A stretch of DNA of 64,000 nucleotides from Promethearchaeota archaeon. GTDB taxonomy: Archaea; Asgardarchaeota; Lokiarchaeia; Sigyniarchaeales; SOKP01. A program made the position numbers and the translations under genes. This document shows, piece by piece, positions 13,775 through 21,387 of this stretch. The stretch's first letter is position 1; the number at the start of each line of letters is the position of its first letter. The notes under the pieces are model-generated. The model saw only the letters and a list, made by a program, of their open reading frames with translations, was not told where the DNA came from and searched no databases. The DNA lies in NCBI GenBank assembly GCA_019058365.1, contig JAHPZE010000008.1:32001-96000 (forward strand). The letters run 5' to 3'.

Positions 13775-14371
13775 TTACACAACAATATATGGTTTATGTT
13801 GTCTTTTTAACATCAAATTATTTAACTCTTTAAAAACCTCTAAAACATTATGATTCTTTAAAGCAGATGTTTTATAAAATCCTTCTAATTTTCTCTCTTT
13901 TACATAGTTGTAAATTAATTCCTCAACAATAATTTCAGAATCGGGTGTATTATCTATTAGATCGCTTTTACTTCCAACTAAAAGAATAGGAATCTTTGAA
14001 TCGACAGCATTCTCAATTAATTTATCATACCAGAAATCTAACTGATGAAAGGAGGGGTAGTTAACTAAATCGAATACCAATAAGGCTCCATTAGCACCTT
14101 CTATAAATTTAGGAATCAATGGGACAAATCTTTCTTGTCCTCCAAAATCAAAAATGGAATTAACTATATAATTCTCTTTCAATATTTCAGATTCTTTTTC
14201 TGTATTAATCTCTAAATATACAGAATGAAAATTTATCCCAATTGTCGGGGATGTGTCAAAATTGAATGAATTAAAACAATATCTGTTAAATAAACATGTC
14301 TTGCCCACTGAACTGGCGCCACATATTACTATTTTAAAACTAAATACTATATCTTTTCGATCATAACCCAT
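13775..14371 (-). CDS. Rab-like small GTPase
   Basis: G1 GASSVGKT, G2 PTIG, G3 DFGGQERF, G4 GSKSD, G5 TSA. Confidence 0.92.
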   Translation of the reverse strand: MGYDRKDIVFSFKIVICGASSVGKTCLFNRYCFNSFNFDTSPTIGINFHSVYLEINTEKESEILKENYIVNSIFDFGGQERFVPLIPKFIEGANGALLVFDLVNYPSFHQLDFWYDKLIENAVDSKIPILLVGSKSDLIDNTPDSEIIVEELIYNYVKERKLEGFYKTSALKNHNVLEVFKELNNLMLKRQHKPYIVV

Positions 14372-17229: not shown

Positions 17230-18306
17230 TCAACCTTCAAGAACTTTATCCAACGTATCAATGAAAATCTTATAATTAGATATTGAGTCTATAAGGAACT
17301 CATTTATTTTGTAAATCCGGGTATAGCCATTTAATATTTCCAAATTATTTTTATTATCTTCTAATTCTACTCTCATTTTTTTTAACATATCATTCCATTT
17401 TGCAAATCTATTAATCACTGATCTAGAGAATTTTAATAGGATCATTCCTGCGGATTCAGCACCATATGTAATCTTGCCTTTAGGTGAAATCTCTGATTTT
17501 TCTACTAATCCATTTTCTAAGAGTAAATTGACTTCTTCAGAAATCTTCCCTACAGATAAACCTGTGATCTTTTGTATAGTTTTTTGGGTAAGATATTTTC
17601 TTGTAATAAAATATCCGAGAATCCTAATAAACATAGGATCTCGACTTGAAAACATAGGAGATACTGCGAGTTGATTTAACATATCTTCCTCAACTAAATA
17701 AACTTCTGGGTCAAAAGAAATCTTTTTCACTTCTTCTTCCCTTTTTGTCAATTTGAAATATTTTGAAGCTATTTCTTCTGTTGTTTCATTAGTTGAATTT
17801 TTTACCACTAATGGGAATAAAATTTTATAAATTTCAAAAGTTTCAAGCAATTCATCAATTCTTCTTGAAAGATGTTGTGCTCCTTTTTTAGATTGTTCTA
17901 TTAATTTTATTAATTCTTCTTTTTTATTTTTCAAATAAGTTCCTAAAGGATCAAAAGAACTCAATGCGATTTCAATCCCTTTAGTCGTAAGATCTTCAAG
18001 TTTTCCAGTAAATGAATATGTAAATGTATGAGTATGAGGAATACGTTCTTTTTGAAAAACTCCTGTACCCGTCATAACTGATAGAAATGTAGAAATTAAG
18101 CCCATCGAAAACCCAGTTAACTCTTTTAATTCTTTCTGAGATAACTTTTCATGAATTAAGAGATAAGAGGAAATTGTTGATATCTTGGGATTAACATGTT
18201 TACTTTTAGCAATATCCAAGAGTAATTCCACAAGGTTATCTTCATATTTTCGTAGTTTATCACTGAAAAGGTGACTATTAGTTTCAGTATCTTCTTCAAT
18301 AGTCAT
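17230..18306 (-). CDS. Double-domain MarR/GbsR-like winged-helix regulator (fused A+B type)
   Basis: Two LS/TQK...LTG.S.G.IS HTH motifs; the N half resembles 18947-19471 and the C half resembles 18432-18950. Confidence 0.8.
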   Translation of the reverse strand: MTIEEDTETNSHLFSDKLRKYEDNLVELLLDIAKSKHVNPKISTISSYLLIHEKLSQKELKELTGFSMGLISTFLSVMTGTGVFQKERIPHTHTFTYSFTGKLEDLTTKGIEIALSSFDPLGTYLKNKKEELIKLIEQSKKGAQHLSRRIDELLETFEIYKILFPLVVKNSTNETTEEIASKYFKLTKREEEVKKISFDPEVYLVEEDMLNQLAVSPMFSSRDPMFIRILGYFITRKYLTQKTIQKITGLSVGKISEEVNLLLENGLVEKSEISPKGKITYGAESAGMILLKFSRSVINRFAKWNDMLKKMRVELEDNKNNLEILNGYTRIYKINEFLIDSISNYKIFIDTLDKVLEG

Positions 18307-18344
18307 TTCTTAACTAAATATAGGTTAGGAATCTATTTAAATGT

Positions 18345-18354
18345 TTTCATGAAA
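18345..18354. promoter_or_regulatory. Putative operator, palindrome TTTCATGAAA
   Basis: Perfect 10-bp palindrome ~40 bp upstream of the fused regulator; same core as the sites at 19512 and 19572. Confidence 0.55.
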
Positions 18355-18431
18355 TTTGAAACTTAAAAATTAGTTATTAAAAAAAATAAAATTAAAGATT
18401 ATTTAGGATTAAGGTCAATAAATAAATGGAA

Positions 18432-18950
18432 TTATTTTTTTTTTTCTTTTTTATATTTATTTTTAAGATCTTCCCAAAGGTTTATTACAGCCTTATATCC
18501 AGAAAATCTCATTAAATTTACATCAATAAAATCCTTTATTTCATTATATCCATTTAAATTTTGAAGTTCTTCTCTATTAATTACCAAATCATTTTTCATT
18601 TCGAGGAATTTTGCCTCCCATTTGATATTTGTTTTCAAGAGGCTAATTGCTCTACTAAAGGTTTCTGCGACAACTGATTCCATAGAGTAAATCCATGGTT
18701 TTGATTTTTTAGAAATCTTTATTAAATTAAACTCCAGAAAATTATTAAGCTCTTGAGAAATTTTTCCCGCAGAAAAGCCTGTTAAGTTTTGGAGTTCAGA
18801 TTGAGTTAAATCCTTTCGAGTTATAAAATAGAAAAGTATTTTTGAAGCTATCTCACCCCGAACAGAAAAAACAGTATACTTTAATAATGTTTTAAATATC
18901 TCACTCTCTATCTTTTTAATTTCAGGGTCAAATTTCTCTTCTTTTTTCAT
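18432..18950 (-). CDS. MarR/GbsR-like winged-helix regulator (type B)
   Basis: FDPEI, YFITRKDLTQSELQNLTGFSAGKISQEL. Confidence 0.8.
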   Translation of the reverse strand: MKKEEKFDPEIKKIESEIFKTLLKYTVFSVRGEIASKILFYFITRKDLTQSELQNLTGFSAGKISQELNNFLEFNLIKISKKSKPWIYSMESVVAETFSRAISLLKTNIKWEAKFLEMKNDLVINREELQNLNGYNEIKDFIDVNLMRFSGYKAVINLWEDLKNKYKKEKKK

Positions 18951-19471
18951 TGTAGATTTTCGTTATTTTTTTGTTTAAATATGAATTCTATATCAGACCA
19001 GATATTTTGAACAGTTTCAAAAGTTTCTGTTAAGCTTTGTATTCGTTCGGAAAGAAACTCCGCTCCTTTCTTATCTTTATTTTTCTCTATGTCAATAATC
19101 TTTTTTTTAAGAAATTCATTAATTTTTATGAATTCCTCTAGTGTTGCATCAGCAGTATCTCCGTATTTTTCGGGGGCATTTAAGTATAAATATTTATTTG
19201 TTTTTGGAATTTTTTCCTTTCTTATAACACCAAGCTCTAATATCTCTCTTAATTTTTTTGAGATTGTACCTGCAGAGAGATTTGTCAAATCTTTTAACTG
19301 TTTCTGAGTTAAATTTTTATGTATTCCAATATAACCAAGAATTAATTGGAGATTTGGATCAATACTCTTCGCTCTACCAGAATCTAACACAAATTCAATT
19401 AATATTTGCTCATATTCTTTAATCTTTCCCTGGAATATATGTTTTCTAGGCAAAAATTTCTTATCTATCAT
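18947..19471 (-). CDS. MarR/GbsR-like winged-helix regulator (type A)
   Basis: IHKNLTQKQLKDLTNLSAGTISKKL; ATGA overlap with the downstream gene. Confidence 0.8.
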   Translation of the reverse strand: MIDKKFLPRKHIFQGKIKEYEQILIEFVLDSGRAKSIDPNLQLILGYIGIHKNLTQKQLKDLTNLSAGTISKKLREILELGVIRKEKIPKTNKYLYLNAPEKYGDTADATLEEFIKINEFLKKKIIDIEKNKDKKGAEFLSERIQSLTETFETVQNIWSDIEFIFKQKNNENLQ

Positions 19472-19511
19472 TCCTTAATATGATTAATGTGCAAACAACT
19501 ATTTATAATTT

Positions 19512-19533
19512 TTCATCTTTCATGAAAAATGAA
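19512..19533. promoter_or_regulatory. Putative operator, 22-bp near-perfect palindrome TTCATCTTTCATGAAAAATGAA
   Basis: 10 of 11 pairs; in the divergent intergenic region. Confidence 0.7.
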
Positions 19534-19571
19534 GAACATTTATATATGCAGATTTCATATTATTTTATTAG

Positions 19572-19601
19572 GTTTTTTATTATTCATGAAAAATAAAAAA
19601 C
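19572..19601. promoter_or_regulatory. Putative operator, 30-bp near-perfect palindrome GTTTTTTATTATTCATGAAAAATAAAAAAC
   Basis: 14 of 15 pairs; immediately upstream of the ABC ATPase start. Confidence 0.7.
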
Positions 19602-19609
19602 TCTAAAAG

Positions 19610-20575
19610 TTGATAAATTTGAACGCAATCGAAGTAAAAAATCTAAAAAAATATTATAACAAGGGAAAAGTTAAAGCTGTTGATGGTGTTTCTTTTGAAG
19701 TTCCAGAAGGTTCTCGATTTGGTTTTCTTGGACCAAATGGGGCAGGGAAAACTACGACGATTCGATGCTTACTTGGATTTTTAAATGTTGATGCTGGTGA
19801 TATAACTATTCTTGGACAAAAAGTTAATCCCATAAAGGATGTAGAAATACGAAATCGAATTGGATATTTACCTGGGGAGCTTGGAATCTACAAGGAAATG
19901 AGTGCTACTCAATTAATTAGATATTTTGCGAAGCTTTACAAAATCGAAATTGATTGGAGATTTGTAGATGAGGTAGCTAACCGTCTTAAAATCGAAATGG
20001 AGCGAAAAATGGGCAACCTAAGCAAAGGCAATAAACAGAAAACAGGAGTCTTAGTAGCGTTAATGGGCAAGTTCGATTTATTAATCATGGATGAGCCAAC
20101 TTCAGGACTTGACCCATTAAATCAGAGTGAATTTTATCGAATCGTATCTGAACGCCAGAAAGAATCAAATTGTACTGTCTTTGTATGTTCTCATGTCCTT
20201 CCAGAAATAGAAAAATTCTGTGATAGCGTGGCAATTATTAAAAAAGGAAAAATTGTGGAGATTTCAGATGTTAGGGATCTTAAAGCAAAGAATTTAAAAA
20301 ATATTGAATTAATTTTTGAAACACCGAAAGGTTTAGAAGCATTTACGAACTTTTTAGCATCCGAGGTTCCAGAAGCTATTGTGAAACAATCCTACCACGT
20401 CGAGCTTCAATTTCTAGTCCCCCCAAAACAGACTCGAAAAGTTTTACATGAAATTAGTGAGAATGACTGGGATGGAGCCCCTATAAGAGATATATCAATT
20501 ACCCATTCTACTTTAGAGAATATTTTTATGCAATATTACAAAGATAGTACTACAGAAGGAGGTGAAGCTGCATGA
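19610..20575 (+). CDS. ABC-2 type exporter ATP-binding protein
   Basis: GPNGAGKTT, LSKGNKQK, IMDEPTSGLDP, SH. Confidence 0.95.
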   Translation: MINLNAIEVKNLKKYYNKGKVKAVDGVSFEVPEGSRFGFLGPNGAGKTTTIRCLLGFLNVDAGDITILGQKVNPIKDVEIRNRIGYLPGELGIYKEMSATQLIRYFAKLYKIEIDWRFVDEVANRLKIEMERKMGNLSKGNKQKTGVLVALMGKFDLLIMDEPTSGLDPLNQSEFYRIVSERQKESNCTVFVCSHVLPEIEKFCDSVAIIKKGKIVEISDVRDLKAKNLKNIELIFETPKGLEAFTNFLASEVPEAIVKQSYHVELQFLVPPKQTRKVLHEISENDWDGAPIRDISITHSTLENIFMQYYKDSTTEGGEAA

Positions 20576-21387
20576 ACACAATTAGAATTATGTTAAAGGA
20601 ACTTACGTCAAATAAAAAAGGCATTATCCTCTATACAGCATTACTGGGATTATTTTACATGTGGTTTGTTTCAATTTTTGATCCTATATTTTTTGCTGAC
20701 TTCGAAGATTTACTTGAATCTTATCCAGAAGCAATAAGGCAGATGATAGGTGAATTTTACTCACTTAGCACAATTGGAGGCTTAATGAATATATATCTTT
20801 TTTCAATGTCTTTGTTCTTTTTTGGAATTTATTTTGTACTAAAGGCTTCCCAAGACATTCCAAGAGAAATTGATAATAGAACAATCGATCTAATGCTGTC
20901 CAAACCTATTAAACGATGGGAATTTTCGCTAGGGAAATATTTATATCATATTATGGGAGCTATTATAATCCTGTTAGGTGTAATGTTGGCAGTAATTCTA
21001 GGTATTTTTATCATGCCAAATGTTGCTGCTAATGAAGTTCCATGGGCAGAATTTTTGACAGCTTTTCTTGTAATGATTTTATTAAATTTAGGCATTGTTA
21101 CTACTGGGTTTTTCTTCTCGACATTCATGGATACTAAGAAATCTCTTGTTTTAAGTTTTGGTACAATTATCTTTTTCTATGCAGTTGGTCAATTCTGGCA
21201 GAGTTTTGGCGAGAGTATGGAAGGCATTAAATATATTAGTATTTTCTACTACTCCGACATGTCAAATCTCCTTGTTAATAGTAATTGGGATGCAATACCT
21301 ATAAAAATCGTGTTTCTCTCAAGTTATACGATCATATTAGCCTTGATTTCATTACTAATCTTCAACAAACGGGATATCCCCGTCTAA
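20572..21387 (+). CDS. ABC-2 type exporter permease
   Basis: Six TM; EID.RTIDLMLSKPI.R; ends FNKRDI; ATGA overlap, SD GGAGGTGA. Confidence 0.9.
   Translation: MNTIRIMLKELTSNKKGIILYTALLGLFYMWFVSIFDPIFFADFEDLLESYPEAIRQMIGEFYSLSTIGGLMNIYLFSMSLFFFGIYFVLKASQDIPREIDNRTIDLMLSKPIKRWEFSLGKYLYHIMGAIIILLGVMLAVILGIFIMPNVAANEVPWAEFLTAFLVMILLNLGIVTTGFFFSTFMDTKKSLVLSFGTIIFFYAVGQFWQSFGESMEGIKYISIFYYSDMSNLLVNSNWDAIPIKIVFLSSYTIILALISLLIFNKRDIPV

Follow-up and report, generated by a model that had tools for sequence, protein, structure and literature searches.

A split gene pair and a fused gene for the same two winged-helix modules in an Asgard archaeon: a probable heterodimeric MarR/GbsR-type regulator and its single-chain form

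MarR-type regulators are textbook symmetric homodimers that read palindromes. The locus described here raises the question of whether the two halves of such a dimer can be two different proteins. In the window, that is, the whole stretch of 64,000 nucleotides of Promethearchaeota DNA that was analysed, two small overlapping genes (A and B) lie beside a longer gene (AB) that resembles both of them joined end to end. The initial annotation proposed that A and B form a heterodimer and that AB is its single-chain equivalent. The features of the locus are collected in Table 1.

Table 1. Genes, modules, promoter elements and putative operators of the A-B/AB locus (positions in the window)
Feature	Position	Strand	Basis or remark
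Gene AB, fused N-C single chain, 358 aa	17230..18306	-	ORF
AB N module, ~residues 1-185	17752-18306	-	
AB C module, ~residues 186-358	17233-17751	-	
TATA-like box of AB promoter, TATTTAAAT on +	18334..18342	-	Read from sequence; putative
Putative AB operator TTCATGAAATTTGAA (TTCA-N7-TGAA)	18346..18360	.	3 nt from TATA-like box
Gene B, C-type module, 172 aa, second gene of split unit	18432..18950	-	ORF and BLASTP
Gene A, N-type module, 174 aa, first gene of split unit	18947..19471	-	ORF and BLASTP
TATA-like box of A-B operon, TATTTATAA on +	19500..19508	-	29-37 nt upstream of A's ATG; putative
22-bp near-palindrome, two overlapping TTCA-N7-TGAA sites	19512..19533	.	Between divergent A-B and ABC promoters
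TATA-like box facing ABC operon, TTTATATA	19539..19546	+	Putative
Extra TTCATGAA palindrome	19583..19590	.	20-36 nt upstream of ABC start codon
ABC transporter ATPase, divergent putative target	19610..20575	+	Pfam ABC_tran, E 2.6e-25
ABC-2 family permease, second putative target gene	20572..21387	+	Pfam ABC2_membrane_2, E 1.2e-13

In pairwise BLASTP, residues 12-177 of AB align with A (35% identity, E 5e-26) and residues 198-350 with B (38% identity, E 2e-22), a likeness far beyond chance. The initial annotation was thus right to match A to the N half and B to the C half of AB. The gene order A then B is also the domain order of AB, and the ORFs and the ATGA shared by the end of A and the start of B (4 nt, 18947-18950) are exactly as first given. 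Between A and B themselves, the wHTH alone aligns (42% over 53 aa, E 4e-9). All three are real genes under purifying selection, with dN/dS values of 0.14-0.20 for A, 0.13-0.43 for B, and 0.20-0.38 for AB. No other members of the family are present in the window's own genome.

A frameshift artefact at the A/B junction had been named as a possible source of error. Logan contigs from two further samples (X2 and X3) span 18947-18950 with zero differences, and a contig from a diverged strain of another study (X4) spans these positions too, without an indel there. The X4 contig has 113 substitutions, and over that stretch its sole indel is at 19552 in the intergenic spacer; a second listed indel, at 18320, is likewise intergenic. 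As these independent contigs, including that of the diverged strain, are free of indels at the junction, the split is real. Two separate ORFs are kept in twenty related species, where the junctions comprise a 4-nt overlap, a 1-nt overlap, and gaps of 1, 2, 4, 5, 10, 17, and 20 nt, and none of these species' split pairs has an in-frame junction. Split pairs are present in other families too, and one is found in a genome that we take to be that of the cultured Promethearchaeum syntrophicum.

Profiles of the two module types were used to assign fold and family. A plain sequence search of the PDB with AB alone gave nothing significant; the matches came from the half-profiles. For the N-type profile the first match was MJ223 (1ku9; E 1.9e-10, positions 15-154 against residues 4-147 of 152), and for the C-type profile it was the same protein (E 1.1e-5). 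By these matches each half is a complete homologue of an MJ223/GbsR-type monomer of the MarR superfamily (PDB 1KU9). The N-type and C-type profiles also match each other (99.8%, E 4e-29, 169 columns), and by sequence the two are distinct, ancient paralogues. Homology to the superfamily is therefore detectable from both profiles. The Pfam family MarR_2 (PF12802, cut-off 27 bits) scores 27.8 for A, 26.0 for AB, and 12.2 for B, NCBIfam gives weak sub-threshold matches only (Lrs14, Sta1, MarR_EPS, and ArsR families), and several orthologues are labelled "GbsR (MarR family)" by JGI. On sequence grounds A, B, and AB are a divergent branch of the MarR superfamily.

The AF2 model of AB (pLDDT 85.7, pTM 0.81) is confident except at residues 1-9 and across the linker (~residues 165-199). 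The chain packs as one body, and the uncertain linker corresponds to the boundary between the split genes. Each modelled half consists of alpha1, a wHTH of three helices, a beta wing, and long helices at the C-terminal end, so that both carry the wHTH head and dimerisation-type helices of the MJ223 fold. The wHTH modules are at residues 40-99 and 224-282, and the recognition helices of the two modules are near-identical (S-x-G-T/K-I-S-x-x-L-N). The nearest fold neighbours of the halves in VIA were 4nb5 (Z 8.3), 5jbr (Z 8.2), and 1ku9 (Z 7.9), with 143-146 residues covered; these Z values are in a middling range, and the sequence-profile matches therefore weigh more.

The distribution of the family shows how closely the two modules are tied. 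It comprises 355 representatives among 1.84 billion, all named members are from Asgard archaea, and the copy number varies from 0 to 19 per genome, patchily over the phylum. Orthologues of AB form about 100 clusters of 350-365 aa with 54-92% identity. The best 148 of the 355 representatives include 75 N-C fusions, which is half of the family, 38 N-only, and 31 C-only proteins. Among the same 148, C-N fusions were absent and no clear N-N or C-C fusions were seen; two divergent proteins scored N-N, and their C half may just be divergent. The proposed survey of A/B/AB co-occurrence bore out the initial annotation: no strong match is solitary, an N module is always followed by a C module, in one chain or in the adjoining gene, and partner sets match exactly across the two allele classes (the A1 and B1 clades occur in an identical set of 11 genomes). 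The N gene precedes the C gene at 24 of 25 split loci; at the remaining one, the C gene was skipped by ORF calling and recovered by tblastn. Within the genus, the best trees need two changes between split and fused forms, and a single split clade gave AU test p values of 0.044 (N) and 0.154 (C) for a group named after the tree was seen. This hints weakly that fusion or fission happened more than once, independently, in the genus.

Split and fused units share the same genomic slot beside ABC exporters. All split pairs in the genus are divergent from an ABC ATPase and an ABC-2 permease, as are split units of other families (G050, G055, and G042), and the permease is syntenic in all loci compared. 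Comparison with orthologues indicates that the ATPase may start at a TTG at 19619. Beside the split pair, neither a substrate-binding protein nor Opu genes were found; its neighbours are the ABC ATPase and ABC-2 permease. In four related genomes (G014, G025, G031, and G018), the fused gene lies divergent from a second ABC pair, and in this window that pair is absent. In G026 and in G012/G030/G033, the split unit occupies the slot that AB holds in other genomes. The family also adjoins varied cargo genes.

Each promoter of the locus carries a putative operator. The inverted repeat TTCA-N7-TGAA has three matches in the 64 kb window, all of them in the AB and A-B promoters. It is matched at 36 of the 38 units in the genus and abuts the TATA box in nearly every one, and 58 of 102 matches in 416 kb fall within 7.7 kb of upstream windows. 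Four sites in the 4.74 Mb genome have an adjacent TATA box upstream of a gene, and three of these are in the AB and A-B promoters. The element is found at -53 to -55 from the ATG of AB orthologues in eight other genomes of the genus, and the TATA-like box, 28-36 nt upstream of the ATG of AB, reads TTTAAATA in orthologous promoters. The 22-bp near-palindrome is kept at -62/-55 in 11/11 A1/B1-type loci, and the ABC-side box is TATATAAAT or TATTTAAAT in orthologous spacers. There are four half-sites in the A-B promoter and two in AB promoters. The extra TTCATGAA palindrome, which is without a full N7 partner and which every A1/B1-type locus keeps at -116 to -127, is possibly a second, weaker site. 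Taken alone, TTCATGAA is mildly enriched in the window (9 matches against 4.4 expected; 5 of 100 shuffles reach 9), and it is the N7 form with its placement that is the informative motif. The exact motif is missing from many distant fused paralogues, so the operator rule is not family-wide.

The reading that we prefer, with a probability of about 70%, is that A:B and the AB pseudo-dimer are the split and fused forms of one unit, with A:B acting as a local, probably ligand-released repressor. The heterodimer proposal of the initial annotation is backed by comparative evidence, namely paralogy, fixed N-C order, the common slot, and matching partner sets, from which we infer physical pairing. A would be the N-type subunit and B the C-type subunit of one winged-helix regulator, each reading DNA with a wHTH head that precedes the dimerisation helices. 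Since AB has the same two modules on a flexible linker of ~35 residues, it would be a single-chain pseudo-dimer. The two DNA-reading heads of either unit would each take one arm of TTCA-N7-TGAA. The unit was also proposed to be asymmetric, and the N and C modules are indeed unlike, but the asymmetry stops short of the operator core, which is symmetric.

The term repressor is one that we infer from position. In the A-B/ABC spacer, the 22-bp palindrome lies between back-to-back TATA boxes, with gaps of 3 and 5 nt, and so covers both BRE positions. Binding there would keep TFB and TBP off both promoters, and the regulator operon and the ABC-2 exporter would be held down together. Release by some ligand, possibly the substrate of the pump, would follow the usual MarR logic. 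As a putative operator also lies against its own TATA box, we propose that AB is autoregulated. In this genome, AB no longer has the second ABC pair found opposite it in the four relatives, and because the operator core is common to AB and A:B, the two regulators probably cross-talk at the locus.

The same complex may act with the opposite sign. Archaeal activators, too, can bind just upstream of the TATA box, and Ptr2 and TFB-RF1 of other archaea recruit TFB/TBP from there. At both promoters of this locus the operator is upstream of the TATA box and not over the start site, and activators are known within the MarR superfamily (PMC6207618). An activating heterodimer or pseudo-dimer is nevertheless unlikely, because the gap of 3-5 nt places the site over the BRE rather than beyond it, in G012-type loci a second identical box lies downstream of the TATA on the ABC side, where a repressor would sit, and the divergent layout of regulator and efflux pump is classically repressive.

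A and B could also be separate homodimeric regulators in one operon, paralogues with their own sites or ligands, and the fused proteins a functionally different lineage. The characterised GbsR-type MarR members are homodimers of one gene product, including the relatives GbsR, OpuAR, and MJ223 (PMC6207618), in agreement with the initial annotation, and co-transcribed paralogous regulators exist. The symmetric core means that the DNA reading alone would equally fit homodimers; the four half-sites of the A-B promoter suffice for two dimers and could equally mean A2 and B2 side by side. What makes this arrangement distinctly improbable is that solitary N or C genes are lacking among strong matches and the order is fixed, that half of the family consists of N-C fusions, with no clear N-N or C-C fusions seen, that split and fused units swap in one slot, and that AB promoters offer just two half-sites to a two-headed chain.

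The tandem winged helices also recall scaffold or general-factor-like proteins (TFE/TFIIE-alpha or RPC62/C82-like) of the kind common to Asgard archaea and eukaryotes, which would not be local regulators. RNA polymerase III RPC62/C82 chains are the top Foldseek matches by E-value (from E 2.8e-6), TFE-alpha appears at Z 6.7 in the fold search, and B alone matches Pfam TFIIE_alpha below threshold (E 2.9e-4; 21.1 bits, cut-off 22.9). The RPC62/C82 matches have TM values of 0.2-0.3 and an rmsd >23 Å, reflecting just repeated wH units, and the best whole-module matches are MarR/GbsR regulators. With a patchy 0-19 copies per genome where a single copy would be expected, varied cargo neighbours, and a palindromic operator of its own, such an identity is very improbable, and we rejected it on superposition, copy number, and genomic context. 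The chance is negligible that A and B are a second fused gene broken by a frameshift error in assembly or sequencing, or by recent pseudogenisation, and this reading is refuted as far as the sequence data reach: the ATGA overlap could remain from a -1 shift and A plus B (346 aa) is near AB in length (358 aa), but the junction is free of indels in contigs of three further runs, it is varied and never in frame in twenty species, split pairs exist in other families, and both A and B are under purifying selection.

With the heterodimer reading preferred, we lean slightly towards a wider proposal. A, B, and AB would belong to a natural, obligately heterodimeric MarR/GbsR branch in which an ancient duplication gave non-interchangeable N and C modules and lineages moved between two-gene and single-chain forms. 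With the built-in asymmetry (unlike dimerisation helices, possibly a single ligand pocket or a one-sided TFB contact), a single complex could set a pair of back-to-back archaeal promoters.

The system is no new kind of machine. If its dimer does consist of two different co-inherited subunits, it would show an asymmetric factor evolving from a symmetric one, and it would offer a simple prokaryotic model, from the closest archaeal relatives of eukaryotes, of how homodimers give rise to heteromeric winged-helix factors. It is compact, with just three small genes, a pair of short operators, and a single pump, and the split and fused forms in one genome provide a natural single-chain control. A relative is apparently present in cultured P. 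syntrophicum, which makes pairing, DNA binding, and ligand response directly testable. The TATA/BRE positions and operator consensus are among few concrete promoter-operator predictions for Asgard archaea. The initial annotation knew of no description of this split/fused arrangement, and our search of the literature on heterodimeric or tandem MarR proteins and Asgard MarR-type regulators likewise found none; it was mostly outside subscription journals, which leaves absence unproven.

Among known systems, the classical MarR-type efflux regulators (MarR, MexR, MepR, and Rv0678) share the genomic logic: the regulator is divergent from or adjacent to the efflux system, a palindromic operator overlaps promoter elements, and the regulator is expected to control its own gene. 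The structure that best matches the fold of the N module, 4nb5, is presumably Rv0678, a MarR-type efflux regulator. The classical proteins are bacterial homodimers on sigma-70 promoters, whereas archaeal TATA/BRE promoters and a two-module unit are found here.

The two-domain SarA family of Staphylococcus aureus (SarS, SarU, and SarY; SarS PDB 1P4X) resembles AB in having two tandem wH modules in one chain. SarS was reportedly described by Li et al. in 2003 as one polypeptide with two homologous, non-identical winged-helix modules that mimic a dimer. Foldseek matched 1p4x to AB at E 1.2e-3, but the global superposition is poor (TM 0.22, rmsd 18.5 Å), so the modules are probably arranged differently in the two proteins. 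No Sar-family match was found in the Pfam, NCBIfam, and PDB sequence searches, and the modules here are longer (~170 aa) with extra helices. We know of no Sar proteins with a split two-gene form of the same two modules.

A third comparison is with MJ223 of Methanocaldococcus jannaschii and the GbsR family (GbsR, OpuAR, OpcR, and CydE), to which A, B, and each half of AB are full-length homologues, with the wHTH head likewise at the N-terminus and the dimerisation helices at the C-terminus. No PDB sequence matches the modules better than MJ223, which is also a top fold match. Many GbsR-type genes adjoin transporters, and the osmoprotectant subgroup (GbsR/OpuAR/OpcR) has an aromatic cage near the inter-domain linker and is associated with Opu-type importers or gbsAB (PMC6207618). 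The partner at the A-B locus is instead an ABC-2 exporter-type pair of ATPase and permease. In contrast to the GbsR homodimers, two diverged paralogous modules always occur together here, either split or fused. Archaeal GbsR-type proteins were confined to Euryarchaeota in a 2018 survey (PMC6207618), whereas the present branch is in Asgard archaea.

Genes A, B and AB lie where the initial annotation had placed them, in exact agreement with the ORF listing, and the correspondence that it had drawn between the split genes and the halves of the fusion was borne out by BLASTP. A matches residues 12-177 of AB (35% identity, E 5e-26) and B matches residues 198-350 (38% identity, E 2e-22), while the likeness between A and B is confined to the winged helix-turn-helix (wHTH; 42% over 53 aa, BLASTP). 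Sequence confirms the overlap of A and B by an ATGA common to the stop of the former and the start of the latter. These three genes are the only family members in the window's own 4.74-Mb genome.

A frameshift at the A/B split, raised in the same annotation, is ruled out by independent contigs and by differing junctions in related species. The junction at 18947-18950 is spanned with zero differences by Logan contigs of two other source-study samples. The contig of a diverged strain, obtained in a separate salt-marsh study, likewise runs through the junction. It carries 113 substitutions and a sole indel over that stretch, at 19552; the second indel listed for this strain, at 18320, is intergenic as well. 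The two-gene state is kept in 20 related species, with overlaps of 4 or 1 nt or gaps of 1, 2, 4, 5, 10, 17 or 20 nt, and none of the 20 has an in-frame junction. Purifying selection acts on all three genes, with dN/dS values of 0.14-0.20 in A, 0.13-0.43 in B and 0.20-0.38 in AB (0.06-0.13 for the ABC ATPase and radical SAM neighbours in the same comparison).

Conventional domain databases say little about these proteins: Pfam gave only borderline MarR_2 matches and NCBIfam no match above threshold. A profile of 32 N-type proteins matches MJ223 (PDB 1KU9) over nearly its whole length (E 1.9e-10), and one of 32 C-type proteins matches the same chain (E 1.1e-5). The two profiles also align over their full lengths (hhalign 99.8%, E 4e-29, 169 columns, 22% identity). 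Because both match MJ223 and each other in this way, A and B are ancient paralogues, each corresponding to a whole GbsR/MJ223-type monomer and not to a piece of one domain. An AF2 model of AB, built on a 54-sequence alignment (pLDDT 85.7, pTM 0.81), gives each half an alpha1, a wHTH, a wing and long helices. Confidence is weak only over residues 1-9 and in the linker (about 165-199), and this linker is exactly the part that the split genes are without. Structural matches of each half are of MarR/GbsR type (4nb5, Z 8.3; 5jbr, Z 8.2; 1ku9, Z 7.9). The lowest Foldseek E-values went to RNA polymerase III RPC62/C82, a likeness discounted as a mere string of wH units with poor superposition (TM 0.2-0.3, rmsd >23 A). 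SarS (1p4x), a single chain of two modules, was also matched, with poor global superposition.

Among strong matches, the two modules keep constant company and order. An N-type gene is directly followed by a C-type gene at 25 of 25 split loci examined, one C gene having been missed by ORF calling and recovered by tblastn. Searching 1.84 billion representatives by profile returned only 355 proteins at E <= 1e-3; the best 148 of these include 75 N-C fusions, 38 N-only and 31 C-only proteins, and none in C-N order. In a tree of all halves, N-type sequences (fused N halves and first genes) stand apart from C-type sequences (fused C halves and second genes), and four very distant first genes sit at the unresolved base. 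Sub-clades on the two sides mirror each other, the A1 and B1 allele clades comprising the same 11 genomes. The nearest relatives of the fused AB clade are split pairs, with G026 as sister (support 94 and 99), then G012/G030/G033; AB-type orthologues are likewise split in G286 and G089. The best trees imply two switches of state inside the genus and 4-6 in total. Under the AU test a single split clade is not firmly rejected (p 0.044 with N, 0.154 with C), so we claim that the fused and split states interconvert but no frequency of it.

All named family members are Asgard archaea. The fused form is conserved in Promethearchaeota MAGs (about 100 clusters, 350-365 aa, 54-92% identity). Matches occur in 67 of 301 genomes sampled across the phylum and concentrate in the window's family (42/68 genomes) and its sister family (5/7). 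Three or four further families hold a few more distant, fused-length members, and most families in this sample hold none. Copy number ranges from 0 to 19 per genome: the family is expanded to 19 matches in G055 (a 6.04-Mb single contig) and to 8 in G050. Several fused copies are divergent from PEP-utilising enzymes of about 800 aa (PPDK_N + PEP-utilizers). Some N-type subunits reach about 250-260 aa through an N-terminal extension of about 70-90 residues, one of them named from a Lokiarchaeota MAG.

Features of the regulator locus in the window and in loci (L) and protein representatives (P) from related genomes
Feature	Position or identifier	Strand	Remark
gene A	18947-19471	-	174 aa; ORF listing
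gene B	18432-18950	-	172 aa; ORF listing
gene AB	17230-18306	-	358 aa; ORF listing
TTCA-N7-TGAA matches	18346-18360; 19512-19526; 19519-19533		
TATA-like box, AB promoter	18334-18342		3 nt from AB site; read from sequence
22-bp near-palindrome, A-B/ABC spacer	19512-19533		read from sequence
TATA-like box facing A	19500-19508		3 nt from near-palindrome
TATA-like box facing pump	19539-19546		5 nt from near-palindrome
variable island between split pair and AB	L036:5365-9050; L037:5379-9897; L038:5542-9227; L044:5102-9269		
third fused paralogue	L034:5305-6411; L042:6615-7721; L043:6610-7728; L045:6474-7580		
long N-type subunits	L035:8357-9142 (G003); P0193, P0195, P0201, P0221, P0223, P0226, P0229, P0238		

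Both promoters (AB and A-B/ABC) share the inverted repeat TTCA-N7-TGAA, a candidate operator; its three matches in the 64-kb window all fall there, and TTCATGAA palindromes are present in the window. Among the fetched loci, 36 of 38 genus units carry it no more than 130 nt from the start. Upstream windows, 7.7 kb in all, contain 58 of the 102 matches present in 416 kb, an enrichment of about 70-fold. Genome-wide there are 210 matches; just four have both an adjacent TATA-like box and an intergenic position upstream of a gene, three of them at these promoters. The near-palindrome stands between two back-to-back TATA-like boxes, so close to each that it covers both BRE positions. N-type and C-type recognition helices alike read S-x-G-(T/K)-I-S-x-x-L-N, in agreement with half-sites that are symmetric. 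The exact TTCA-N7-TGAA motif is missing from many distant paralogues.

We conclude that one two-headed regulator exists here in two forms, encoded by two genes as the presumed pair A:B and as a single chain in AB. This regulator would sit at the BRE/TATA edge, bound to TTCA-N7-TGAA, and most likely block initiation at its own promoter and that of the pump (the ABC ATPase and ABC-2 permease), a block that a ligand would relieve. That the same protein instead activates these promoters seems unlikely. In the window AB lacks a dedicated pump, and its operator core is the same as that of A-B; the single-chain form probably regulates its own expression and cross-talks with the A-B/ABC promoter.

Throughout the genus, the regulator unit or units converge on a radical SAM gene and diverge from genes for the ABC ATPase, ABC-2 permease and IMPDH. 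All split pairs are divergent from an ABC pair, also in other families (G042, G050, G055). The fused orthologue is divergent from a second ABC pair (ATPase 37-41% identical) in G014, G025, G031 and G018, and a single split unit faces this second type in G026 and G012/G030/G033. Since either form faces the second pair, depending on the genome, split and fused units are interchangeable in a single slot. The window and G005 lack the second pump, and AB directly follows B there. Varied cargo beside distant fused paralogues (PEP-utilising enzymes, an ABC ATPase with FtsX permease, DUF998, a solute-binding protein) is consistent with a role of the family in local regulation.

The identity levels of regulator and pump do not agree between species when L044 (G008), L045 (G021) and L036 (G006) are compared with window 18432-21387. 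The ATPase and permease of G008 and G021 share 85-93% identity with those of the window, and the adjacent split pair, of a different allele class (A2/B2), only 32-39%; in G006 the split pair is 75-78% identical and the permease just 52-53%. This suggests that cassettes have been swapped, or have recombined, within the locus. Where A-B and AB stand 3-6 kb apart, the gap is filled by a variable island, wholly missing from the window and G005, with two ICMT/PEMT-like membrane methyltransferases, one or two TetR regulators, a free condensation-domain protein (PapA-like) and a conserved 434-439-aa protein without Pfam match. A third fused paralogue (about 370 aa, 26-28% identical to AB by BLASTP), also absent from the window, is divergent from a 434-477-aa uncharacterised protein and has its own pair of TTCA-N7-TGAA sites. 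The window's ABC ATPase lacks an ATG start (19610-19621): orthologues begin ATG AAC GC, and the window reads TTG AAC GC at 19619 with a second in-frame TTG at 19610. The conserved flank includes a Ras/Rab-like small GTPase (198 aa, 13775-14371), 99.5% identical in G005, far more conserved than the regulators.

GbsR-type proteins are described as homodimers modelled on MJ223, and in 2018 their archaeal members had been found in Euryarchaeota alone (PMC6207618). Our literature search turned up no description of MarR-type regulators that are heterodimeric or tandem, nor of the present Asgard family. As an analogue of the fused form, SarS/SarU/SarY come closest; we know no split counterpart of them. 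The split/fused Asgard regulator is real and conserved, and it is readily testable.
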